This document shows positions 4,642 to 16,710 of a DNA stretch of 64,000 bases, piece after piece. The translations under genes and the position numbers were made by a program. Under the pieces are notes generated by a model that was given only the letters and a program-made list of their open reading frames with translations, did not search any database and was not told where the DNA came from. This DNA is from Escherichia coli (GTDB lineage Bacteria > Pseudomonadota > Gammaproteobacteria > Enterobacterales > Enterobacteriaceae). Every line of letters begins with the position of its first letter. Positions within the stretch are counted from its first letter, which is position 1. Location of the stretch: NCBI RefSeq assembly GCF_030013595.1, contig NZ_CP122768.1; one strand, 5' to 3'.

Positions 4642-5862
4642 ATGAATAAATATCAGGCAGTGATTATTGGTTTTGGCAAGGCTGGAAAAACATTAGCCGT
4701 CACGCTGGCAAAAGCAGGTTGGCGTGTGGCTCTCATCGAACAATCAAATGCAATGTATGGCGGGACCTGTATTAATATCGGCTGTATCCCAACCAAAACA
4801 TTGGTTCATGACGCACAGCAGCACACAGATTTTGTCCGTGCCATACAGCGTAAAAATGAAGTGGTTAATTTTTTACGTAATAAGAATTTTCATAATCTTG
4901 CGGATATGCCCAATATCGACGTGATCGACGGCCAGGCGGAGTTTATCAATAATCATAGCCTGCGTGTTCATCGGCCTGAGGGAAATCTGGAGATTCATGG
5001 CGAGAAAATTTTTATTAATACCGGTGCACAAACCGTGGTTCCGCCAATTCCTGGAATTACCACCACGCCTGGTGTATATGACAGCACCGGATTACTTAAT
5101 CTAAAAGAATTGCCTGGGCATTTAGGTATTTTGGGCGGCGGATATATTGGCGTTGAGTTCGCCTCTATGTTCGCTAATTTTGGCAGCAAGGTAACCATTT
5201 TAGAAGCAGCTTCGCTGTTTTTGCCTCGGGAAGATCGGGATATTGCTGATAATATCGCGACGATTTTACGCGATCAGGGCGTCGATATTATCCTCAATGC
5301 CCATGTGGAGCGAATCAGTCACCATGAAAATCAAGTGCAAGTGCATAGCGAGCACGCCCAACTGGCGGTGGATGCACTGTTAATAGCTTCCGGTCGTCAA
5401 CCAGCTACCGCTTCGTTACATCCAGAAAATGCCGGTATCGCAGTAAACGAGCGCGGGGCAATTGTCGTTGACAAGCGATTACATACCACCGCAGACAATA
5501 TTTGGGCGATGGGAGATGTTACCGGCGGGCTGCAATTTACTTACATATCACTAGATGATTACCGCATTGTACGTGATGAGTTACTGGGTGAAGGCAAACG
5601 TAGTACTGATGATCGGAAAAATGTGCCTTATTCCGTATTTATGACACCGCCCCTGTCCAGGGTTGGTATGACAGAAGAACAAGCCAGAGAGAGTGGTGCT
5701 GATATTCAGGTGGTGACATTGCCTGTAGCTGCAATTCCGCGCGCCAGAGTGATGAACGATACCCGTGGGGTATTAAAAGCGATTGTTGATAATAAAACCC
5801 AACGTATATTAGGGGCATCACTGCTGTGTGTTGACACGAGAGTATTCAAAACACGCCAATAA
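4642..5862 (+). pseudogene. rclA: rclA (pyridine nucleotide-disulfide oxidoreductase), 5' portion; reading frame leaves native sequence after ...LLCVD (about 5835) and ends in element-derived codons TRVFKTRQ*
   Basis: GFGKAG Rossmann motif, CINIGCIPTK redox-active disulfide; K-12 RclA is 441 aa, here first 398 aa then insertion. Confidence 0.8.
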
Positions 5863-5903
5863 CCTCTTGATTCAATTGAAGTCGAAAATTTTAAGTCAAA
5901 AAT

Positions 5904-5929
5904 CGTATAGCTTAACGTGTAGCTAAAAA
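5904..5929. repeat. Sub-terminal repeat cgtatagctTaacgtgtagctaaaaa (left copy), probable integrase-binding/att-associated site
   Basis: Near-identical copy at 16432-16457 (1 mismatch). Confidence 0.55.
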
Positions 5930-6479
5930 TGTTTGCTGCAAAAGTATACAATTTTAACCGTTATGACTCCCTGTTATCCGTTATCAAGCTGGTGGATGAT
6001 CATGGATAACCCGTTATGGGAATCCCCATATCGGCATCAGGCCCATGCCATAACAAAAACCCCATATTCGTGGGTTTTCTGTGTTGTGGCTATTCTGCCG
6101 TTGCCGTGCTGGTGGATATTTCCGGTATGTGGCTCACCATATCGGCATCACGCCCACCAGCGCGACGCATTTTTTTAATTTCGCGGGTGTAAAAATTTGA
6201 CGGGGCGGGCGGTCCTATAAGCAATGGGGGGTAGGGATTTCGATCCCCCCTCCTGAATGCAATTTTCCGTATGTGGCTGTGCGGCAATCATACTCGTCAC
6301 ATGTTTTTGACAATAAAAGGCCCGACCGTGAGACTCACAAACAAAAAAGTTACGGAGAAACAGGGGATCGGGCTCGGTTGCCGCTAAATCTATTCAATTA
6401 AAAGAAGATGTCAATAGGGAAAACGAAAAAAAACAATGCTGATATTGTCATAATTTGAACAAAACCACTATATGTAGTT

Positions 6480-6710
6480 TTAGTTCATGAGGTTAGTCGC
6501 TACCAGATGCGTCAATAGTTTTTTGCTATTAATAATCCCTCTTTTTCCATCGGGAGCTTTGCACTTGTCACTACCTGGTAACTCCTGGTGGCGTTCCTGT
6601 TGCAGCACAACGGAAACAGGCGCTGAACACCTGTTAATTTTGCTTGCAGGTTGTTTGATTTCGGCAATGCTGCGGATCATCTCCAGCATATCGGCTTCGG
6701 TGATGGTCAT
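6480..6710 (-). CDS. Hypothetical small protein (76 aa) in satellite
   Basis: ORF only; lies just beyond the cos-like repeat block. Confidence 0.25.
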   Translation of the reverse strand: MTITEADMLEMIRSIAEIKQPASKINRCSAPVSVVLQQERHQELPGSDKCKAPDGKRGIINSKKLLTHLVATNLMN

Positions 6711-6718
6711 GATTTACA

Positions 6719-6995
6719 CCTTAGGAAATCTTAGGGGCTGGTTGACACTTTCCGGCTTAAGACCTTAACAAATCTTAACATCGCAGGTTGACACACTTGA
6801 CACTTTTTCGCGAAAAACCTTATCAAACCTTAGCATTTCTAAGCATGGCAACTTGACACTTTTCGCGATTTTTTCGGCTTTTTGACGTGGTAAATCTGGC
6901 GCAAAGCCAGTAACGGCGGGGTTTACAGCGAGGTTGACACTTTTTCGCGTTCAGAGTGTAAAGTGTCAACCTGGCAAGCTGCTCAACTTGACACT
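6719..6995. repeat. Cos/pac-like repeat block: at least 6 direct copies of TTGACAC(TTTT) (6742, 6788, 6797, 6853, 6934, 6988) plus one inverted copy (6963) interleaved with CTTAnnAAAnCTTA repeats
   Basis: Repeats counted directly; adjacent to TerS-like gene. Confidence 0.5.
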
Positions 6996-7003
6996 TTTTG
7001 AGG

Positions 7004-7531
7004 TCATTGATGGCCTGATTTTTCCCACTCAGCCAGGGCGTTTAGTCCGGCTTCACTCCAGTTATCCAGCTCATCGGGACAATCACCTGCAACATAGCAG
7101 AGCTCACAACGCAGCATACGAATTGCCAGCCTGGCATTTTCCCGAAAATCATACTGCTCAAAGTAATATTGCCCAGCATAATCCTCAAGGCAGATAGCAC
7201 CATCATCAAGAAATTGCACTTCACAGCATAGTTCCCCGGCTGCATCCTGTACACGCTGCTGTATGTCATTGTCCGTTACTGGTGCAGGGATTTTACCGTC
7301 TCTGGCCTTAACTGCTTTCCAGAACTCGCCCCACGTCATTTCCAGCGTTCTCTCTGGCCACATTTCAGAAACGGTATCTTTTCCCTGTGCTGGTGGGCTG
7401 TTCCGCTGCTCTGTCGCTTCCACATCGATTTTTTTACCGGACATGACCACTTCGCCTTTCTCGATCCAGTCGTAAACTGTCTGGCGGCTTACGCCTTTGT
7501 GTTTGGCATATTCTGCCTTGCTCATAAACAT
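7004..7531 (-). CDS. Terminase small subunit-like protein (Nu1-type N-terminal HTH); candidate packaging-redirection protein (Rpp-like)
   Basis: N-terminus KAEYAKHKGVSRQTVYDWIEKG resembles lambda Nu1 HTH; no large terminase or capsid gene in element. Confidence 0.55.
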   Translation of the reverse strand: MFMSKAEYAKHKGVSRQTVYDWIEKGEVVMSGKKIDVEATEQRNSPPAQGKDTVSEMWPERTLEMTWGEFWKAVKARDGKIPAPVTDNDIQQRVQDAAGELCCEVQFLDDGAICLEDYAGQYYFEQYDFRENARLAIRMLRCELCYVAGDCPDELDNWSEAGLNALAEWEKSGHQ

Positions 7532-7701
7532 GACACTTCCCCTCAGACTGTATTAATGCGCCGGAAAGCGCGTGTATTTAAATCATCCCAGGAACCGTTG
7601 AGCACCAATTAGTTGCGCGAAGTAATCGGCACCAGCGTTCCGAACAATTTCCAACTTAACGTTCTGATCATTGTTTCCTGCTGCAGGGACAATCCCACGA
7701 T

Positions 7702-8355
7702 TCATAGCCAGCGCCCGGATATTTCTTCCAGTTTTTCCAGAGCTGGCTTGCAGGCCGCATCAATAACTTCACGGACCATTCCGGCGAGCTGTTCTTCTTC
7801 TGTCGGCGTTGTTACTTCCACACCTGATGGTTTCCCGCCCTTATCCCATACGCCCAACGGTACGAGCGCAACGTGATCGATAAGAAATGGCGTACCCTCA
7901 ATGAAAAAATTGTCCTCGCCCATTACATCAGGAACTTCTGCCCCACCGGACGCACCACAAAACACAACCGACGGGCTGGTGGATACCTCCCCCCGTGCTT
8001 TCTGGATGTAATCGATGATTTCCTGCCCGTAAATCCGGCATACGCCCCACACCTCGTCACCGCGAATATACGGCAACATGACGGTGCCAATAATGCGCGA
8101 CCGTTCGCCCACGTCTTCAAGGGTTTTGCTTTCGGGATGGTCGATAATGACGGGTACTCCGGCGCAACGTTCCAGGAACTGCGGATTGAGATAAGTTTGC
8201 GGTGAACGCCAGACAAATTCTTTTTCTTCGGCGCGATAGGCCATTCCGGTTCCTGTGATACGCAGGTTAATCAGCCACATGTTGGAAAACTGATAAGGCG
8301 ACGGTAGCTGACCGTCCCGAATCTGCTTTGCCGCCTCAATTTCTGTTAAAAGCAT
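7702..8355 (-). CDS. Hypothetical protein (217 aa), satellite morphogenesis/packaging region
   Basis: ORF with coding-like composition; no motif recognised. Confidence 0.45.
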   Translation of the reverse strand: MLLTEIEAAKQIRDGQLPSPYQFSNMWLINLRITGTGMAYRAEEKEFVWRSPQTYLNPQFLERCAGVPVIIDHPESKTLEDVGERSRIIGTVMLPYIRGDEVWGVCRIYGQEIIDYIQKARGEVSTSPSVVFCGASGGAEVPDVMGEDNFFIEGTPFLIDHVALVPLGVWDKGGKPSGVEVTTPTEEEQLAGMVREVIDAACKPALEKLEEISGRWL

Positions 8356-8419
8356 AATGTCCCCCGGTTATAAGCAATAAGCCCCACCAAATCCGGCAGG
8401 GCTGAAATCAGCACGTTTT

Positions 8420-9013
8420 TCATGCCCCCGCGAGGCTTGCAACGTTAATTTTAACCAGGCGACGGGGAGGGATTTTGAAAGCACTAAGCCAGTTATTCGG
8501 ATCCCCCTGATATTCAGTAATCCGCCGTCCGGCTTCATCCATTCTTACGGTTTTACGCAAATAGCCCGGCGTATTTTCCACAGCCCACTGAACACTGTCT
8601 TTTGCAGCCTGGTAAATCTGATCTTCCAGCACCGCCAGCGTTGCAGAATCTGAAACGGAACGAATATCCACATCACTGAATTTTTTAGCCAGCTTCTGTG
8701 CACCAATTAATGCACGCTTGCGGTAATCCATCGACTTTTCACCAGCAAACGGGGCTGGAGCGCGACGGCCCATATTGCTGTATGCGGAATCCGCTTTAGC
8801 CTGGGCTTCTGCCAGTGAGGATTCATCTTCGACTGACGCGACGATGTTTTTATTCGCGTCATCCTCGTCCGCTTTTGTGAAATCCTGTGCGGGGATCGCA
8901 TTCAGAATTTCGATAATCTCCTGCGGAGTGCTGCCCTGCGACTCTGACAGAGCGTTAACCACCTCCATCAGTTTTAATCGCAAATCTTCTTTGCTTGCTG
9001 GCATTTTTACCAC
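8420..9013 (-). CDS. Hypothetical protein (197 aa), acidic and Ala/Glu-rich, scaffold-like
   Basis: ORF; composition resembles phage scaffolding proteins (inference only). Confidence 0.4.
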   Translation of the reverse strand: MVKMPASKEDLRLKLMEVVNALSESQGSTPQEIIEILNAIPAQDFTKADEDDANKNIVASVEDESSLAEAQAKADSAYSNMGRRAPAPFAGEKSMDYRKRALIGAQKLAKKFSDVDIRSVSDSATLAVLEDQIYQAAKDSVQWAVENTPGYLRKTVRMDEAGRRITEYQGDPNNWLSAFKIPPRRLVKINVASLAGA

Positions 9014-9043
9014 CTCTCTTTTTTCACCAAAAAATCACGACCA

Positions 9044-9241
9044 TCAGGCCGGACGTTCTACGGGATAAAGCGCCCGCTGCATTAAACGCCGGGCGACCTC
9101 ATGAATGCTCGGAGCAATCCCCAGCGGAGAATTGCGGCGTTCCTCGTCCTGGATGCGCTGTAATGCTTCAATCTGATCACGAGCGAGTAAAACGGGTTTC
9201 ACGCTGGCTTTTCTCATAGTCATATCTCCTGAACAAAACAA
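9044..9241 (-). CDS. Hypothetical small protein (59-65 aa)
   Basis: ORF between PerC-like gene and the 197-aa gene. Confidence 0.3.
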   Translation of the reverse strand: MFCSGDMTMRKASVKPVLLARDQIEALQRIQDEERRNSPLGIAPSIHEVARRLMQRALYPVERPA

Positions 9242-9418
9242 TGATTATGATTGCACAAACTGAAATAACGATCTACATCATTGCAATTTATGAAACAATA
9301 ACGCATGATGATCGCGTTCTTCCCATTGACTTCAATCACCTGAAAAACAAAGCCCGCAACACTTCTGGCTGCGGGTTTTTTACTGGCACAAAAAAGCCGG
9401 GAAAAATCCCGGCCTCCG

Positions 9419-9706
9419 TCACTGACTGCAATTTTTCGATCCAGGGTATTTCCTGAATGCCTTACCATTGGGCTGATGTAATCCCATCCCGGCATGTGCC
9501 CGGCTGATGGTTTCGCGCATTTCCCCGAAATTATCCTGCCTTGCTGGTGGGCGTGCTGCCTTGCGGATACATTCCGCGCGACGTTTTGCCGCCTGTTCCC
9601 GTGCCTTGTCATCATTCGCCAGCATGATGACCTCAGCCCACCGCGCCGCCGCTCTCCGGTACAGACCACGCGCTTCCAGTGCTTCCGCTTTGCTGTCGTG
9701 AATCAT
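9419..9706 (-). CDS. PerC-family-like transcriptional activator (95 aa)
   Basis: Small basic protein with N-terminus MIHDSKAEALEARGLYRRAAARWAEV typical of prophage PerC homologs (from memory). Confidence 0.45.
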   Translation of the reverse strand: MIHDSKAEALEARGLYRRAAARWAEVIMLANDDKAREQAAKRRAECIRKAARPPARQDNFGEMRETISRAHAGMGLHQPNGKAFRKYPGSKNCSQ

Positions 9707-10245
9707 GCGCCTGTTTTCTCCTTTGCTGCCCGGCGCTGACGTTTGCGCTTCTCATTCAGCGCCACCAGCCGCGTTTCTGCGTCCTGTTGTTCCTGTGGTG
9801 TCACCTCGCCGCACGGCTGGCCTTTCAGGTCGTAGCGTACCCCACCAGCCATTAAGGCGCGGTAATAGCGCGGACACTGCGCATAAGATGCCAGCGTCGC
9901 ACGCAATGCCCCTGGACCGAATGCCAGCCCCCTGACGGCGAGATCCTGCATCAGGTCGTCGAATATCCCCACCTTAAGCGGCTTCGGTGCTTCCCGGCTG
10001 AATAATTCAGGCCACAACTCAGTGAGGCGGTTAACGCGCCTGCGGTTTTTGCGCTGGCGTTTGGTCATATGCCGCCACGGTGTCGCCCCTGTGGGCTTCT
10101 GCTGCGCTTTCTGGTTACCGGGCATCACTTTATGCGCCGATGTGGTTTTATCCTGCTCCTGCGCCGCCTGCGTCGTTTTCTGCGGCGTGCCGTAAATGCC
10201 TTTCGGTTTTCTGTTAATGGTCAGCTTAGTCATGCTTTGCCCCAT
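9703..10245 (-). CDS. ProQ/FinO-domain RNA-binding protein (180 aa)
   Basis: PKPLKVGIFDDL ... YAQCPRYYRAL ... RYDLKGQPCGEVT matches ProQ/FinO N-terminal domain pattern; K/R-rich tail. Confidence 0.6.
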   Translation of the reverse strand: MGQSMTKLTINRKPKGIYGTPQKTTQAAQEQDKTTSAHKVMPGNQKAQQKPTGATPWRHMTKRQRKNRRRVNRLTELWPELFSREAPKPLKVGIFDDLMQDLAVRGLAFGPGALRATLASYAQCPRYYRALMAGGVRYDLKGQPCGEVTPQEQQDAETRLVALNEKRKRQRRAAKEKTGA

Positions 10246-10392
10246 CGTTTTTACTGGTTGCTACGTTGCCCAACGGCACTGACACAACATTCTGTTTTCA
10301 TTTTTAACATTCCTGATTTTTTAATTCCTCACCTGCTGCACAGTGAAAATTTATGAAGTTAATAACAATATGATTTTAAATGTATTTTTAAG

Positions 10393-10713
10393 TACTCACT
10401 TTTTAATCCTTATATATACGCAAAAGTGAGGTAAATAGTTAAGTTTTAGTTAATATCTTGCATGGTGTGTTTTTTAACCTACCTGTTATTTTTATTACCT
10501 CATTTCTATTAACTCACCATTCCTCACTTTTGTTCCTCACTTTTTATTATTCTTGTTCTGCTCCTCAGTCGTTTTCTTTATTGTTGTAATCTGTTGTTTT
10601 GCAATGTGTTTTTAACTCCTCACTTTTTGACCTATATACAGGTGAGAAAGTGAGGAGTGGCGTTGATTTTTTGTTAAATTACCCGCCATCCTCACTTTTG
10701 CTCCTCACTTTTT
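10393..10713. repeat. Iteron-type replication origin: at least 7 copies of CCTCACTTTT (direct and inverted) in AT-rich DNA immediately 3' of rep
   Basis: Copies at about 10395, 10421 (inv), 10522, 10534, 10617, 10645 (inv), 10691, 10703. Confidence 0.6.
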
Positions 10714-12127
10714 ACAGTGGGCGCACATAATCACCGTCAATAGCGATTACGCCGTCGCTTTCCAGCTTGTACAGCCAGCGCCGGAAGTTTTTCATTTCAT
10801 ACCCCAGCTTTTTCATATCATCGCGGAGAAGGGCGATAGTGCACGCCTCCCCGTGTGCTGTTCGCGTTCTGATGCACTGCCATAGCGCAGCGTGATTTTC
10901 CGTCTTGTTCCCGGCCTCCTCGATGCGTTCCAGTTCAACAGGTGGGCGCGGCTTATCCACAACCACCAGCGACGTGATTAACTCCCCGTCAGTGTCGGTA
11001 AAAAGCTCCACCACGCGTAAATCATATGCAGCCTCTTTCAGTTCCTCCGCGTCCTTCATTTTGGTGCAGGAGATAACCAGGGCTTCACTGTCCGCACCTT
11101 CACGGCGAATACGGTATTCAGCGTCCAGAGATGCACGAAATGCACTGGAACCACGCGCCCCTTTTGTTTCATCCTTGCCGGAATGGTGAACCACCAGTAC
11201 CGTGGCCCCTGTGCGTCGTTTCAGTTCGTCACATCCACGGATAAACGCCCCCATATCCCGCGCGTCATTTTCATCATTACCGCCAAAGCAACGCGCCAGC
11301 GTATCCAGAATAATCATGCGTACCGGTTTACCCGTTTCCCGTTCAACCTGACGGGAAGCGATGACCATTTCATCAACATCAAGCGGGACCGCCGGAAAAA
11401 TCGGGCGGTTTACCAGGTACAGATTTTTCACCCGTTCATCATTAACGATTTCCCATGCTTTGATACGACGAGGAACACCGATCCCGCCCTCACCAACGAC
11501 ATACATAACCGCACCATGTACAACCCTGCGACCTCCCCAGTGGCGACCAGTGGCAACATGACACGCCCAGGAACACGCGAGGAACGATTTATAGGAACCG
11601 CTCGCGCCGTATGTGCTGCACAACGAATTAGCCGGAATCACGCCCTTAACGACATAATCAAGCTGTGTGTCGTATCCTGCAGATCCAATACTCATTGGTA
11701 GCGTGGTTTTTCGCTGGCTGTATTGCTCGTCAGTAAGTATTTCCCCGCGCTCTGCCTGTTCGCGGATCCGTTGCAGGTAGTCGTGCCAGTTCTCCAGCTT
11801 CTGGCTGTGCATTCCCTCAGGGTAATAATTCGCATCCCGTACACCTGCCGCCGCCAGTTTTTGCCCGATGGCATTAATATTTGACGGCTTGATGTGGCCT
11901 GCCTTGTACAGCCGGACACAATAGCGACCATCGTCGATAATTTTCAGGTCTGCCAGTTCGTCAAGCTGGCTGTCTCCCAGCCATACAGGCGGAACATTGT
12001 CGCCAGCAAGTCGCCCGTCCTGTTCCTGCCATTGTTTCGCGTGCGCCCAGGCATCACTACCCGCAAAAATAATGACTTCGGTCATTTTGTCGTGTGGCTG
12101 TTTTTTTAAGTTCGGTGCCAGTTTCAT
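10712..12127 (-). CDS. RepA-like replicative helicase / AAA_25-type ATPase (471 aa)
   Basis: Walker A GASGSYKS, Walker B MIILDTL, VVHHSGK; adjacent iterons. Confidence 0.7.
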   Translation of the reverse strand: MKLAPNLKKQPHDKMTEVIIFAGSDAWAHAKQWQEQDGRLAGDNVPPVWLGDSQLDELADLKIIDDGRYCVRLYKAGHIKPSNINAIGQKLAAAGVRDANYYPEGMHSQKLENWHDYLQRIREQAERGEILTDEQYSQRKTTLPMSIGSAGYDTQLDYVVKGVIPANSLCSTYGASGSYKSFLACSWACHVATGRHWGGRRVVHGAVMYVVGEGGIGVPRRIKAWEIVNDERVKNLYLVNRPIFPAVPLDVDEMVIASRQVERETGKPVRMIILDTLARCFGGNDENDARDMGAFIRGCDELKRRTGATVLVVHHSGKDETKGARGSSAFRASLDAEYRIRREGADSEALVISCTKMKDAEELKEAAYDLRVVELFTDTDGELITSLVVVDKPRPPVELERIEEAGNKTENHAALWQCIRTRTAHGEACTIALLRDDMKKLGYEMKNFRRWLYKLESDGVIAIDGDYVRPL

Positions 12128-12423
12128 TTTGTGCCCCTGAATGCGTTAATCATGTTTTTCATTTTCTGAATATTTGCCCGTGCCTTTGCGTTGCTGGTGG
12201 GCTGTTTGCGTGGTGTGGCCTGTATCAGTGAAAAATCACGCCGGAACTGATAAACAGGCATCACGCAGTCGTAGCTGTACCCATCACGGCGGTAAGTAAC
12301 GCACCGTCCGGCAATACTTTTAATCGTTACCGTGCCGCCGTAGTTATCCCGGAAAATATCGCCGGGGCGGATTTCAGGCCGAGGGAGACCACTGGCAGTA
12401 AAGCCAGAATTTTTCTTTTTCAT
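12124..12423 (-). CDS. Hypothetical protein (99 aa), translationally coupled to rep (4-bp overlap)
   Basis: ORF; operon packing. Confidence 0.45.
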   Translation of the reverse strand: MKKKNSGFTASGLPRPEIRPGDIFRDNYGGTVTIKSIAGRCVTYRRDGYSYDCVMPVYQFRRDFSLIQATPRKQPTSNAKARANIQKMKNMINAFRGTK

Positions 12424-12427
12424 GGTT

Positions 12428-12628
12428 TTATTTTCCTGTCAGCAGTTCCGGTTTTATTTCCGCACGAATACAGAGTTCAGAAAAAAATTCAGGAGAACCA
12501 ACAATCTCATTACTTTTCAGTCGGCATTGTGATTTCACTTTCCCTTTATCCAGGTAAACCAGTATGCGTCCGGTGAAATCATCTGGCACACTCAGGGTAA
12601 TTGTCATTGTTGCTTGCTGATTATCCAT
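12428..12628 (-). CDS. Hypothetical protein (66 aa) with one FTG-x-LV repeat unit
   Basis: Shares about 50-aa repeat with upstream 121-aa protein. Confidence 0.4.
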   Translation of the reverse strand: MDNQQATMTITLSVPDDFTGRILVYLDKGKVKSQCRLKSNEIVGSPEFFSELCIRAEIKPELLTGK

Positions 12629-12986
12629 GATTCACCCCCTGAATAACCTGATAACCGCAACTGGTCAGCAATTCGATAAATTCCGGCAGTGTTCCGAAAC
12701 AGCAATCATCTCGCAGCCGTTCTCGGGATACTTCAACGCCGTTTTCGTAGTGACTCACCATGCGTCCGGTAAAATGCAGATCATCATCGTGATGGCTCGT
12801 TAACGGCTTAATCAGTCGCGCACGTTCTGCCAGCTCCAGCAATGCTTCAACGCTTCCGGCAATTGCACCATCCGGCAGGTGATAATTACTTGCCACGCGT
12901 CCATTCTCCACGTTAACCAGTAGCTGCCCGGTGAATTTCTCATCAAACTGAATGCTGTTAAGGTCAGAAATTGACAGGTTAATCAT
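12621..12986 (-). CDS. Hypothetical protein (121 aa) with two internal FTG-x-LV repeat units
   Basis: Internal duplication visible in translation; 8-bp overlaps with neighbours. Confidence 0.45.
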   Translation of the reverse strand: MINLSISDLNSIQFDEKFTGQLLVNVENGRVASNYHLPDGAIAGSVEALLELAERARLIKPLTSHHDDDLHFTGRMVSHYENGVEVSRERLRDDCCFGTLPEFIELLTSCGYQVIQGVNHG

Positions 12987-13344
12987 GGCGTACCTCCTGG
13001 CGAATACGGGCAGCGAATACCATCACGCAGCCATCAGGAGATTGCTGGCGTGCTTCCTGTTCGCTGGTGGCCACGATGTGAATCACGCGCGGTTGTGCGG
13101 TGCTCAGGGCGATAAAACGCCAGATAAAATTGTTTTCGCATTTCTGAATAAACAGCGTGTTTTCTTCGCGCCCTTTCCATGTTGCCGAGATATAGCCCAT
13201 GCCATTGAGCATCTCGCAGGCATCAACCAGCGTATCAGCGGCTACGTGTACAGTGTTTTTACCGTCAGCTATGCAATCACGGTGCACCGCCAGGAAGGTG
13301 TATATAAATTTAGGGTGAGTTTGGGTATGCTGTGTTCCAGCCAT
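12979..13344 (-). CDS. Hypothetical protein (121 aa); first gene of alpA-distal operon
   Basis: ATG at 13344 with AGGT RBS; the 478-aa ORF-track extension to 14415 is judged spurious. Confidence 0.45.
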   Translation of the reverse strand: MAGTQHTQTHPKFIYTFLAVHRDCIADGKNTVHVAADTLVDACEMLNGMGYISATWKGREENTLFIQKCENNFIWRFIALSTAQPRVIHIVATSEQEARQQSPDGCVMVFAARIRQEVRHD

Positions 13345-13545
13345 AATCGTTACCTCATTTAACGGTTTGGTTAGAAGCCCCGTTACTGCTCCAACAGTGC
13401 GGGGCTTCGTCGTTTCAATTGCTGAATTGCATGTATCAGCCCTTGTGGTATTCAGATTACATTTTGGTGAATACCATTTCAAGTCTTTTTTGGTATTCAC
13501 TTTTGTATTACACTGCATCCCGTTATTAATCGGAGGTGCAAACAT

Positions 13546-13849
13546 GTCCACGAGTTCTGTTAACAATAAGTCACAGCAACTGAATGCCAGATTTCCACAT
13601 GAAGTAGTGAGTGGCATTGAGGCATCCCTACAGCCAGGGGAAACTAAAGCGAATTTTATAGTTACGGCTGTACGCGGTGAGATCGCCCGCCGCCAGGCAG
13701 AAGGAAGCGGAGAAAACCCCCTGGTTTCTTCGCTCGATGCGCTGGCGCAGGTGGAAAAAATCGGAGTCAAAGCTGCCGAGGAGATCGGGCAGCTCGTCAC
13801 CGTCGCACGTGAAGAACTCCAGCGCCGCAAGGCCAAAGAATCAGAATAA
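13546..13849 (+). CDS. Putative ribbon-helix-helix-like DNA-binding protein (101 aa), divergent from the rep operon
   Basis: GGAGG RBS; inverted repeats TGGTATTCA / TGAATACCA at about 13445-13500 upstream. Confidence 0.4.
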
Positions 13850-13906
13850 TAACTATCATCGCCGTGGTGTGAGGAACTCCGGCGCATTGCTTTACAGGTA
13901 CACAGA

Positions 13907-14107
13907 ATGACCAACAAAGAATCAACCAAAACACCATCACCAACCCGGAAGAGACGTCGCAAAAATATGACGCACGAGCATGAATCAGACAGATTCGCGC
14001 CGTGTGCGTTTGTCCTTGAGACGTTCCTTAAAGAGTACAGGCGCACAAAATTAGGGCCACATACCTGGAAAACATCGCGACATAGCGATATTAAAGAGCA
14101 GGAATAG
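13907..14107 (+). CDS. Hypothetical small basic protein (66 aa)
   Basis: ORF downstream of RHH-like gene; R/K-rich N-terminus. Confidence 0.3.
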   Translation: MTNKESTKTPSPTRKRRRKNMTHEHESDRFAPCAFVLETFLKEYRRTKLGPHTWKTSRHSDIKEQE

Positions 14108-14240
14108 CCCACCAGCAAGTCAGCATATTCACCATAATGACCCTCGGTTAAACCTAGAGTCATTGGTGCAAACCTGACACATTGCCCACCAGCCAGCAAA
14201 TCGCTATGATATTTGGGCTTATGTTTAGTGTTTTCCCATT

Positions 14241-14268
14241 GGCGACCGCCCCCGGTCGCCTTTGTTTT
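14241..14268 (+). terminator. Rho-independent terminator (GGCGACCG-cccc-CGGTCGCC + T-run)
   Basis: Perfect 8-bp stem followed by TTTGTTTTG. Confidence 0.55.
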
Positions 14269-14321
14269 GCCCGTTATCCGGCAATTGTGGCGCTTCGCCA
14301 CACGGTTGATATAATTCCCCT

Positions 14322-14392
14322 GCACTGATCCATTTTTTTCGCAGCAGGTTAATTGTTCGCAAGGGCGCTCCGGCAACGGGGCGCTTTTTGTT
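14322..14392 (+). ncRNA. Candidate ~70-nt small RNA: extended -10 (TGaTATAAT, 14307-14315) to terminator hairpin 14361-14389 with GNRA-like loop and T-run
   Basis: Promoter-like element and terminator ~70 nt apart in a 310-bp non-coding gap, convergent with alpA 3' end. Confidence 0.3.
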
Positions 14393-14419
14393 ATGTTCAT
14401 CGCGTTACGCCTCACACCA

Positions 14420-14626
14420 TTACGCAGCCGTTCCGCGCGCTTCTTCCTCGCGCTCTTTCAGCCAGGCCAGCACTTCATCTTCATACCAGCCAACACGACG
14501 CAGACCGATTTTGAAGCCTTTCGGGAATTTTCCGGCGTTGATCATGTCCTGTAGCGAACTGTCTGCCTTGATGCGCAGAATATTTTTTACTTCCTGACGG
14601 GTAAGTATTTTTCTGATTGTTTCCAC
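14420..14626 (-). CDS. alpA: AlpA-family transcriptional regulator (68 aa)
   Basis: Typical AlpA/Vis-like size and HTH (LRIKADSSLQDMINAGKFPKGFKIG) next to integrase. Confidence 0.75.
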   Translation of the reverse strand: METIRKILTRQEVKNILRIKADSSLQDMINAGKFPKGFKIGLRRVGWYEDEVLAWLKEREEEARGTAA

Positions 14627-14690
14627 TATGTTTTACCTCGTTAATCCGGCGTATTCCGGTGATAAATACGGTAAAACAGGGCAGGGCGGG

Positions 14691-14732
14691 AAAAACAGTA
14701 CCCACCGTTTTAAAACGGTACCCACTGTTTTT
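14691..14732. promoter_or_regulatory. Tandem operator-like sites AAAAC(A/G)GTACCCAC(C/T)GTTTT x2 upstream of alpA
   Basis: Two 20-bp near-identical units in the alpA promoter region. Confidence 0.4.
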
Positions 14733-14795
14733 ATCTCATTGATTACGCTTTTCTTTCTGCAAAAAAATAGCGACCGCAAAGGGCCGCTATTGTGA

Positions 14796-15026
14796 TTACC
14801 GTTTCCACTTCTTAGGTCGCCCACCGCATTTAAGGCTGGTGGGCCTCAGCACCTTGTCGATGCTTTCAGCCAGATTTTTCGATGCACCACGCGAGCGCAA
14901 AAAACTGACTACCTCGTGTTTTGTGGGGGCTGTTGATTTGTCTTCCGGATCGTATGTTGACCAGAATTCACGATTTGCCATTAACGCCAGTTGCAGCCCT
15001 TCGCCGTAGGCGGTGGTATTTTGCAT
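14796..15026 (-). CDS. Hypothetical small protein (76 aa) between int and alpA
   Basis: ORF only. Confidence 0.25.
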   Translation of the reverse strand: MQNTTAYGEGLQLALMANREFWSTYDPEDKSTAPTKHEVVSFLRSRGASKNLAESIDKVLRPTSLKCGGRPKKWKR

Positions 15027-15124
15027 AATAGAATTTTCATATACTCCGGCCTTGTCGTTAAATTTGTGGCAATTATACGATGGTTTGGCATGGTTTGCAT
15101 CGCTTTTACTGGCTTTTTGTACAG

Positions 15125-16366
15125 CTACACGGCACGGATACCCCTTTTACCGCTGGCTATGGTCACTCCGGTAGCTGCAGCCTCCACAAATTCACCCCAC
15201 CAGCGCATAAGCACCACGCGCTTTTCCAGGTAGTTACTTCGGTTATATGCCCGCCTTACCTCGTTCGTGTCCACGTGTGCGAGTGCGGCCTCGATTACGT
15301 CCGGTTCGAATCCTTCCTCGTTCGCTGCTGTGCTGAATATGGCGCGTAATCCGTGAGACACCAGCACACCAGCGTAACCCATCCGGCGTAATGCAGCGTT
15401 AGCGGTCTGGCTGCTCATTGGCAGCATCGGATTTTTAAGGCTGGGAAAAACGTGTTCCCTGTGTGCGCTGATTGGCTTCATGGTTTCCAGTACAGCCATA
15501 GCCTGACCGCAAAGGGGGATCACATGGTCACGGCGCATCTTCATGCGTCCGGCTGGAATCGTCCAGGTTTCGGCATCGAGATCTATTTCTTCCCAGCGTG
15601 CGGCGGCTGCTTCGGCTGGGCGTGCTACGGTCAGCAGTTGCCACTCAATCAGCAATCTGGTTTGCCGTTCTATGCTGGCGACCGATAAATCGTGCATTAG
15701 CTGCGGTAGCTGTTCCGGTCGGATGGTTGGCATGTGCTTTTTGGTGGGTGAGGGGAATGCCTTGCGGACGTTCGCGGCGGTGTTGATGTCAATCAGCCCA
15801 CTGTTGGCGGCAAAATCCATCACTTCATTGATGCGCTGCAAAACGCGTTTCAGAGTTTCCAGGTTGCCGCGTGCTTTAATGGGGGTGAGTATCTCAACAA
15901 AGCGGCGAGCGGTGAGGGTATCTATTGGCGTGTTTCCGATGTACGGGAATACGTATTTTTCCAGGGATCGCCAGATATCCTTAATCGTGTTGTAAGCCAG
16001 ATTCTGGCCTTTTTTCATCTCGTACCAGTCCGAGGCAACTTTTTCGAACGTGTTGCCCTTTTTCCGGCTCTCTGCTTCACGTTTCCGGCGTTCATGGTCC
16101 TGTGGGTCAGTTCCCTTTGCTATTAGTGACCTGTATTCATTCCGTCGCTCTCTGGCATCAGACAGGGAAACATCATTCAGCGATCCAAGGCTGATAATAG
16201 TCCGTTTTTTATCTGCCGGGCGGTAGTACGTAAAACGCCATATTTTTGATCCGGAGGGCTTCACCAGAAGAAATAATCCTCCGCCATCCTGCAGGGTGTA
16301 TTCCTTTTCCCCTGGTCGTGCGTTTTTGATCTCCGTAATGGTTAGTGGGGTGGTTTTTCGTGCCAT
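15125..16366 (-). CDS. Tyrosine site-specific integrase (P4-type, 413 aa)
   Basis: N-terminal arm-binding-like region and C-terminal catalytic domain (HGLRAIFST ... R..Y); adjacent repeat cluster. Confidence 0.85.
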   Translation of the reverse strand: MARKTTPLTITEIKNARPGEKEYTLQDGGGLFLLVKPSGSKIWRFTYYRPADKKRTIISLGSLNDVSLSDARERRNEYRSLIAKGTDPQDHERRKREAESRKKGNTFEKVASDWYEMKKGQNLAYNTIKDIWRSLEKYVFPYIGNTPIDTLTARRFVEILTPIKARGNLETLKRVLQRINEVMDFAANSGLIDINTAANVRKAFPSPTKKHMPTIRPEQLPQLMHDLSVASIERQTRLLIEWQLLTVARPAEAAAARWEEIDLDAETWTIPAGRMKMRRDHVIPLCGQAMAVLETMKPISAHREHVFPSLKNPMLPMSSQTANAALRRMGYAGVLVSHGLRAIFSTAANEEGFEPDVIEAALAHVDTNEVRRAYNRSNYLEKRVVLMRWWGEFVEAAATGVTIASGKRGIRAV

Positions 16367-16380
16367 GTTTTTTTACCCAT

Positions 16381-16457
16381 CGGTAGCTATATGCCTGGTC
16401 GTAGCTATACGGCTTTAGCTACACGCTGGACCGTATAGCTAAACGTGTAGCTAAAAA
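16381..16457. repeat. Integrase-proximal repeat cluster (GTAGCTATAC / CGTATAGCTA / CGTGTAGCTA inverted and direct units) including right copy of sub-terminal repeat (16432-16457)
   Basis: Matches left copy at 5904-5929. Confidence 0.55.
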
Positions 16458-16509
16458 ATCCGGTTATAACCCTATCTTACCGATTCAATCCGGCGACTGA
16501 AAACAACAA

Positions 16510-16543
16510 AAAAGCCCGTTAATCAGTAAATTAACGGGCTTTC
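16510..16543 (-). terminator. Hairpin AGCCCGTTAAT-loop-ATTAACGGGCT with T-run on minus strand
   Basis: 11-bp stem; on the minus strand followed by TTTTTTGTTGTTTT. Confidence 0.4.
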
Positions 16544-16555
16544 AATAGGTTACCG

Positions 16556-16710
16556 ATGCTGTCCGATATTCAATTTGGTCGGCACGAGATGATCAATATA
16601 GTGAAAATGGTGATGGATGCCGGGCTGCCTTATAGCATATTACGCGATCAGATATTTACTCATCCGTCGATGAGCGAATCACTCAATGATCTATTTTCAT
16701 TAGTCAAATA
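16556..16710 (+). pseudogene. rclA: rclA 3' remnant encoding ...HEMINIVKMVMDAGLPYSILRDQIFTHPSMSESLNDLFSLVK*
   Basis: Matches remembered RclA C-terminal dimerisation region; in-frame ATG at 16556 is element-derived. Confidence 0.7.

Follow-up and report, generated by a model that had tools for sequence, protein, structure and literature searches.

In phage lambda and in Rpp-type phage-inducible chromosomal islands (PICIs), cosB is situated upstream of the gene and keeps a constant spacing of about 50 bp to cosN, with R3 at approximately bp 48–65 from the nick (PMC9026076). In the island EcCICFT073, rppA and cos1 are the experimentally proven determinants of packaging specificity (PMC6739421). 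For want of a recognisable packaging module, many of the Gram-negative PICI-like islands, a large share of them, are scored as incomplete, a point discussed in PMC11773190 with reference to the de Sousa classification. Here we describe a repeat array at positions 6711–7003 of a 64,000-nt stretch of the Escherichia coli contig NZ_CP122768.1 (below, the window means this whole stretch), which directly follows the gene of a 175-amino-acid (aa) winged-helix protein in a phage satellite. The array very probably is the target of this protein, and we tentatively favour a role of the two in packaging specificity. Literature searches, by protein accessions and for pac-type Gram-negative PICIs, returned no description of either the protein family or the array.

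The end of EcCICFT073 (E. coli CFT073) comprises a PerC gene, capsid-like genes, cos1 (exact GGGCGGCGACCT), rppA, an intergenic region with an inverted cos2, and a 93-aa open reading frame (ORF). In our island the 175-aa gene occupies the position of rppA, and the array that of the intergenic region which there separates rppA from the small ORF. In relatives of our island the small ORF after the array is present at full length, and this version (that of locus L014) is 69% identical to the 93-aa ORF. The 175-aa protein and Rpp share 10/25 residues in the helix-turn-helix (HTH), with no further sequence homology; this is, to judge from the sequences, one protein-plus-site cassette replaced by another rather than divergence inside one family. 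In the comparison with known E. coli PICIs, proposed in a sequence-only reading of the window, the slot is shared with rppA and cos of EcCICFT073, lambda cosN is missing here, and the likeness of the proteins is limited to the HTH.

In EcCICFT073 itself, three ATGTCCGGTT copies flank cos2 between rppA and the small ORF (L021, 3150–3310), one at bp 51–60 from the nick and the other two, oppositely oriented, at a greater distance, in a lambda-like R3/R2/R1 layout. This cos2 may carry a complete cosB of another lambdoid phage.

Structure and conservation of the repeat array

The array occupies the entire 293 bp that separate the stop codon of the 175-aa ORF (7004–7531, minus strand) from the start codon of the neighbouring 76-aa ORF (6480–6710, minus strand), i.e. 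it lies immediately 3' of the former, where the sequence-only reading had placed it. The following features are distinguished, listed in the order of the genes except for the B sites, which come last; the source of each is given in parentheses.

6711–7003, no strand assigned: whole repeat array, the intergenic region between the winged-HTH gene and the small ORF (sequence, repeat finder, motif scans)
6987–6997, minus: A site, AAAGTGTCAAG in gene-sense orientation, 7 bp past the stop codon (motif scan)
6960–6970, plus: the sole inverted A site, forming with 6933–6943 a conserved inverted pair with 12-bp arms and a 16-bp spacer (repeat finder, motif scan)
6933–6949, minus: A site in the extended form CGCGAAAAAGTGTCAAC (repeat finder, motif scan)
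6910–6926, no strand assigned: D element, G+C-rich quasi-palindrome GTAACGGCGGGGTTTAC, within the 81 bp that separate the proximal from the distal A group (sequence)
6852–6862, minus: A site, first of the distal group (motif scan)
6787–6812, minus: double A site (GTGTCAAGTGTGTCAACC) with the A/T-tract palindrome TTTTTCGCGAAAAA (repeat finder, motif scans)
6741–6751, minus: the most distal A site (motif scan)
6819–6841, minus: B sites, TAAG-N6-TAAGG, two overlapping units (motif scan)
6764–6777, minus: B site (motif scan)
6720–6733, minus: B site, whose final TAAGG is also the ribosome-binding site of the small ORF (motif scan)

Thus, directly after the stop codon there is a proximal A+/A−/A+ group, followed by the 81-bp spacer and by a distal A/B group in which the A sites are spaced by 55–56 bp; this organisation is conserved across genera. 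A CTGGCGCAAAGCCAG hairpin (6896–6910) adjoins the D element.

At least six direct copies and one inverted copy of TTGACAC had been claimed, and both the motif counts and the shuffles bear this out: the copies start at 6742, 6788, 6797, 6853, 6934 and 6988 on the plus strand, with the inverted one at 6963–6969. Seven of the 15 copies in the window fall within approximately 250 bp of the array (stretch 6719–6997), while shuffled sequences contain 8.6 copies per 64 kb, that is, about 0.03 expected for a stretch of this size. For GTTKACACTTT with at most one mismatch, 6 of the 7 window matches are clustered in the array, and none of 100 shuffles reached seven. The second, interleaved family is also real, since all three window matches to CTTA-N6-CTTA are in the array (6720, 6764 and 6819), alternating with the TTGACAC sites. 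The repeat finder reported TTGACACTTTTTCGCG as an exact repeat (6797–6812 and 6934–6949), composite units of 40–47 nt, and one 12-bp inverted pair.

Short ORFs do overlap the array (6823–6969, minus; 6487–6768 and 6934–7197, plus), but across genera the motifs are conserved and the spacers are not, so the view that no ORF explains the repeats stands. As only the motifs are retained, the array is indicated to be putative non-coding protein-binding DNA. An alternative is a structured RNA or a sponge for small RNAs, co-transcribed with the late operon: the array is probably transcribed, its TAAGG repeats resemble Shine–Dalgarno sequences, and the island encodes a ProQ/FinO-type RNA chaperone. However, there was no Rfam match at E up to 1, the fold energy is unexceptional (z = −1.24), the B motif is absent from many relatives, and the inverted pair is one motif in two orientations, with no compensatory evidence. 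The RNA element was rejected on the Rfam and fold-energy results, and we consider it extremely improbable.

The array is present in 165 of 5,426 complete E. coli genomes (~3%), always on the chromosome. Among the E. coli relatives it is 90–99% identical despite the change of the replicase family (471-aa helicase type, 601-aa D5-type primase, or DUF927), and the cargo downstream of it is wholly different, for example Abi and SieB, AAA and DUF4435, or an RNA-binding-domain protein. This bears on the possibility that the repeats are iterons of a replication origin, as origins typically contain direct repeats that are short and have A/T tracts. In that case one would not expect an array unchanged across three replicase families; besides, its GC content is 41–44%, it lies 3.7 kb from the replicase gene, and a canonical origin exists at 10300–10710. 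The origin interpretation was discarded once the real origin had been found and replicase swapping seen among the relatives, and its probability is minimal. The array marks the start of a hotspot of anti-phage cargo: in L003 (7676–8659 and 6703–7683) and L001 (8161–9891) the genes directly past it include the pair of an AAA ATPase and DUF4435, and Abi with SieB.

Wherever the 175-aa gene has homologues in E. coli, Serratia, Enterobacter, Pantoea and Rouxiella among the loci compared, the core motif AAAGTGTMAAC is met again shortly downstream. In all 12 homologue loci found via protein or gene-region DNA similarity (33–98% identity), A motifs are situated within 750 bp past the stop codon, and in all distant loci fetched by the protein, AAAGTGTMAAC is within a few hundred bp of it, although the sequences between the motifs cannot be aligned. 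When IMG/VR was scanned for the pattern of two A sites 35–60 bp apart, this yielded at least 15 further contigs with a homologous gene immediately upstream. In the combined set of 27 loci we observed 110 A sites in 20.8 kb of downstream sequence (750 bp after each stop codon) versus 3 sites in 340 kb elsewhere (5.3 versus 0.009 per kb), where 15 loci had been chosen by the motif itself and hence give no independent support, while the other 12 had not. A sites were found nowhere else in the islands, and the 170 bp 5' of the 175-aa gene (7532–7701) contain neither A nor B motifs.

The minimal conserved layout is an inverted pair (A−, 17–19 bp, A+) right after the stop codon, followed by co-oriented A sites approximately 54 bp apart; the pair is likewise present in the relatives from Serratia, Rouxiella, Enterobacter and IMG/VR. 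Motif B (TAAG-N6-TAAGG) and the TTTTTCGCGAAAAA tract are limited to E. coli, Serratia and some Enterobacter lineages. The core of the D element, CGCCRTTACTGGCYT, is kept in two loci with proteins 53% (L018) and 35% (L020) identical, and the element is not recognisable in several relatives (L016, L017 and the L055 group).

The IMG/VR scan also returned many iteron-like repeats with AAGTGTMAA (L029, L031, L052, L070, L097, L105), which were set aside as chance or unrelated occurrences. One of these contigs, L097, from an unknown phage, contains about 20 dense AAAAGTGTCAA / GTGTAAAA repeats (11170–11950), 1.2 kb upstream of terS/terL; it has no match in the phage collection, and its motif is similar to the A site, but it has no homologue of the 175-aa protein.

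The 175-aa protein and its possible role in packaging

7004–7531, minus: two-domain protein of 175 aa, the presumed array binder

Residues 1–44 of the protein form a winged HTH, residues 46–55 are disordered, and residues ~61–170 form an alpha/beta domain whose fold family is unplaced. The N-domain is a MerR-superfamily winged helix with P2 Cox, BldC, Xis, RdfS and AlpA among its top structural matches. Homologues exist in Citrobacter, Pantoea, Serratia, Rouxiella, Enterobacter and Raoultella, with remoter relatives in Klebsiella and Burkholderia-group bacteria, and are publicly annotated as 'hypothetical', 'DNA-binding' or 'MerR family', with one UniRef member called 'Repressor'. Among homologues otherwise 32–87% identical, the first 45 residues are almost invariant, and identity in the remainder drops to about 30%. 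This pattern would suit a protein whose DNA target stays the same and whose protein partner changes.

As the linkage of the A sites to the gene is exclusive, the motif is conserved jointly with the recognition domain, and the islands contain it nowhere else, the A sites are very probably the cognate target of the adjacent protein. Some functions of such a complex can be weighed straight away. It could be a centromere-like segregation site of the excised replicon (cf. pSK1 Par and SopB–sopC), or a decoy or sequestration site for interference with the helper; but no partition ATPase is present, satellites are not known to persist as plasmids, and phiP27, the phage sharing the cos of the island (see below), has no A or B motif to mimic. 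Either variant is improbable.

The fold of the N-domain suggests another alternative. Proteins of the Cox, BldC, Xis, RdfS and AlpA type bind head-to-tail on direct-repeat arrays, and the array could be an architectural or transcriptional regulator site, on whose co-oriented A sites the protein polymerises in the manner of Cox, Xis and BldC, with no packaging role. It would then control transcription of the late operon at the core/cargo boundary, as a roadblock, as an insulator, or as an activator of the small ORF and the accessory genes. The structural matches, the PHROG match 'Cox-like excisionase and repressor' and the UniRef name agree with this, as do the position of the array directly upstream of the conserved small ORF, the last B motif serving as the Shine–Dalgarno sequence of this ORF, and the variable cargo after the array. 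On the other hand, a scan of the coding strand of the array detected neither a sigma-70-like promoter nor an intrinsic terminator; the same small ORF has a quite different upstream region (cos2) in EcCICFT073 and is missing from L003 and L004; in L009 a convergent gene follows the array; and the confinement of the A sites to this place leaves no regulon. On balance, we regard a purely regulatory site, the main alternative to packaging, as rather unlikely. If it were one, it would define how core and cargo are insulated, being a conserved regulator–site pair of ordinary interest.

Several observations lead us to favour, tentatively, a complex acting in packaging specificity in a pac-like manner, analogous to Rpp. 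Firstly, given the synteny with EcCICFT073, the cassette occupies the packaging slot. Secondly, in the minimal relatives L008, L018 and L019, which contain subsets of int, alpA, primase, single-stranded DNA-binding protein (SSB), ProQ and/or PerC genes plus the cassette, there is no lambda, P2 or P27 cos; a packaging signal is required in any such satellite, and the cassette is the one cis element left unassigned there. Thirdly, an invariant DNA-binding domain with a variable C-domain is what would be expected of an adaptor to different helper terminases. Finally, the architecture is pac-like, the origin and RNA-element alternatives failed their tests, and the array is located where the conserved core gives way to variable cargo. 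In P4 and PICIs the packaging site lies at this core/cargo boundary, and the genes downstream are diversified there by lateral transduction (PMC12829572, PMC9122126).

In this model, the array and the 175-aa protein would be a two-part cassette at the end of the late operon in a family of Enterobacterales PICI-type satellites. Upon induction by a helper phage, the protein would bind the A sites (CGCGAAAAAGTGTMAAC) through its invariant N-terminal winged HTH, at one inverted pair beside its own stop codon and then at 2–6 co-oriented sites, with the TTTTTCGCGAAAAA tracts bending the DNA; in some lineages motif B may serve as a contact for a second surface or for a protein partner. The variable C-terminal domain would engage a component of the helper terminase, so that satellite concatemers would be marked and packaging would start at the array and run towards the cargo/att end, as from a pac site or with Rpp. 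A separate, simpler packaging route would be provided by a cos site of the phiP27 type.

6177–6215, plus: true cos, phiP27/HK97-like, HNH-dependent type, with the 10-nt cos GGGGCGGGCG at 6202–6211 (blastn, annotation, alignment, exact 17- and 25-mers)

This site emerged when 8 kb of the island was compared with phages by blastn, the single informative match being that of 6172–6253 to the annotated cos-site region of the Stx2e phage phiP27; the same segment matches genome termini of several Burkholderia phages. In phiP27 the matched region takes up all of the intergenic DNA that separates the HNH endonuclease gene from the P27-family terS gene; about 46 nt are identical, the 10-nt cos among them. 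Thus, the island appears to carry the cos of its helper, in the manner of P4 and SaPIbov5. No A or B motifs were found in phiP27, and no phiP27-like terminase genes in the window. A diverged version of the phiP27 cos region was observed at the close of capsid-forming PICIs (L013). An exact phiP27-type cos in a PICI with no terminase is useful in itself, as it names the likely helper class (phiP27/HK97-type).

The array had been described as resembling a cosB-type array of binding sites for a small terminase, next to a Nu1-like gene. Taken literally, it would be a cos with cosB-type sites, and the quasi-palindrome at 6910–6926 would be a new cosN cut by the helper terminase; in any case, the D element may be considered a candidate cleavage or architectural centre. 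It shares a G+C-rich, quasi-palindromic make-up with the cohesive ends of lambda, P2 and P27, lies 25–50 bp from the flanking A sites, is conserved in some distant relatives, and is loosely similar to the lambda flank GTTACG...CGCGGGTTTTCGC (compared with cos1 of L021). However, the proposed comparison with the cos regions of lambdoid and P2-like phages, once made, gave nothing for the array. Lambda, P2 and P27 cohesive ends were sought in the array and 14 related loci, and none was found in the array, with no lambda or P2 match even when mismatches were allowed. For cosN (GGGCGGCGACCT, at most two mismatches) there was no match in or near the array, the sole one in the island, with two mismatches, being at 14814, while EcCICFT073, the positive control, yielded exact cos1 and cos2. 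Moreover, known cos satellites share at least 40 nt with the helper, as the island does at 6177–6215, while blastn of the array against 50,697 phage records found no phage sharing even 19–20 nt; and the array is 3' of the gene, not 5'. Nor can the array be a lambda-like cosB serving the site at 6177–6215, because the distance between them varies, being 0.5 kb here and 2.3 and 3.6 kb in two relatives, and most of the other islands with the array lack that site. The literal cos model is therefore very unlikely, and a lambda-style cosB finds no support.

Other facts speak against packaging in general. The array shares no such sequence with any phage of that collection and contains no cohesive-end sequence of any known type, and a helper-identical cos already in the island makes a second signal unnecessary. 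In L005 a partial array is retained with no 175-aa gene (8975–9165), and the part of the conservation statistics that comes from motif-chosen loci gives no independent support. The fold class of the protein also includes pure regulators (Cox, BldC, AlpA) and excisionases. As to a Nu1- or TerS-like nature of the protein, a PDB sequence search gave no match to Nu1 or RppC, the TerS PHROG was matched via the N-terminus only, tblastn against the same phage records gave no relevant match, and the C-terminal alpha/beta domain has no TerS-like fold in PDB, BFVD or AFDB50 and is unlike the oligomerisation core of known small terminases or of Rpp. It is thus not demonstrably a small terminase subunit.

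The fullest form of the packaging proposal, namely, that the cassette is an unrecognised satellite-encoded packaging-specificity cassette, a non-homologous counterpart of Rpp/cosB or of the TerS/pac of Staphylococcus aureus pathogenicity islands (SaPIs), with the quasi-palindrome as the cut region, is less likely than not. If it were true, the island would have two independent packaging routes, the cassette and the helper-identical phiP27 cos; the variable C-terminal domain would track different helper terminases; and the packaging of many Enterobacterales PICIs with no known terminase gene, rpp or cos would be explained. As a packaging signal it would give the satellites carrying the cassette a testable transfer mechanism; engineered transduction would gain a small portable tag (~300 bp and a protein of 175 aa), and satellite cargo hotspots could be located with the cassette as a marker.

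In L004 an IS3 element interrupts the 175-aa gene and the distal array is deleted (8960–9230), so that L004 and L005 are natural deletion variants among the E. coli islands.

The satellite island around the array

15125–16366, minus: P4-type tyrosine integrase
10712–12127, minus: primase/helicase-type replicase, 471 aa
10300–10710, no strand assigned: replication origin, an AT-rich field (GC 25–35%) with about nine CCTCACTTTT iterons in both orientations, immediately 3' of the replicase gene
6480–6710, minus: small ORF, 76 aa; its 5' end matches a conserved 93–96-aa PICI protein (phrog_1561), and its 3' part is diverged in this island

The island is a PICI-type phage satellite of 10.7 kb on the minus strand (~5834–16590), inserted in rclA (ykgC). 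The gene is thereby split into a 5' part ending near 5834 and a 3' part that continues from near 16583; CACGAGA stands at each of the two junctions, given what we take to be the native rclA sequence there. Near both ends there are clusters of CGTRTAGCTAAA repeats (5908–5930 and 16383–16458), which look like arm-type sites of the integrase. The gene order is integrase, AlpA-like, Icd-like and DUF4222, replicase, ProQ/FinO and PerC, two proteins related to a DUF2213/protease-like phage family, the 175-aa gene, the array, and the small ORF. The origin field is situated within a 466-bp gap 3' of the replicase gene, in the canonical PICI layout. With int, alpA, a replicase with its origin, flanking att sites, a size in the range of ~10–15 kb and no structural or lysis genes, the island has the set of features of a PICI-type satellite; in the window it has no terminase, HNH or capsid genes, and no cargo of its own.

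Two further elements were observed. Just upstream of the alpA-like gene there are two tandem 20-bp units, AAAACAGTACCCACCGTTTT / AAAACGGTACCCACTGTTTT, which are also palindromic (14691–14732) and are probably the operator of the island master regulator. A CCCCATATCGGCATCA-type element, which may be a part of the attP arm or a packaging-termination element, recurs close to the att-distal end of unrelated PICIs including EcCICFT073 (6020–6050 and 6138–6165 in the window; L021, 3960–4010; L002, 8735–8770; L001, 8040–8115).

Comparison with known systems

Like lambda cosB (R3-I1-R2-R1) with gpNu1, the cassette combines a protein of the same winged-HTH class with several motif copies in both orientations. 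Unlike it, the array lies 3' of the gene, lacks a cosN and is built of an unrelated motif, whereas lambda cosB has cosN on one side and the 5' end of Nu1 on the other, at a spacing that is critical (PMC9026076). Compared with Rpp and the cos1/cosB of EcCICFT073, the C-domain here is alpha/beta and not the Rpp dimerisation domain (PMC6739421, PMC9026076); in the Rpp PICIs a single proposed R3 site lies 5', about 50 bp from cosN, while here a 290-bp multi-copy array lies 3' of the gene. The proposed R3-PICI (AGGTGACACC) is also similar to the A motif (AGGTTGACAC), but over too few positions for this to be evidence. The packaging region of EcCIMP1 also differs (PMC11773190).

In the pairs P4/P2 and SaPIbov5/phi12 the satellite carries the helper cos; this likeness holds for 6177–6215, where identity to the helper cos was found, and not for the array, where it was not. 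P2 Cox, BldC, Xis and RdfS resemble our protein in the fold of the N-domain, and their sites resemble the array in being mostly co-oriented and having A-tracts. However, they are single-domain proteins of 55–90 aa acting at attP or promoters, while the 175-aa protein has an extra domain of 110 aa, and the array, in contrast to Cox and Xis sites, is about 0.8–0.9 kb from the att core (several kb in relatives), with no promoter detected.

The remaining systems are the pacL-pacC-pacR of SPP1 with G1P, the pac hexamers of P1, and the TerS/pac of SaPIs. From headful pac systems the cassette differs in its 175-aa protein, which has neither a recognisable TerS oligomerisation core nor a phage homologue. 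It resembles them in that two groups of short repeats flank a central region, with A-tract bends, beside the gene of a DNA-binding protein, and it resembles SaPI TerS in being satellite-encoded and satellite-specific.
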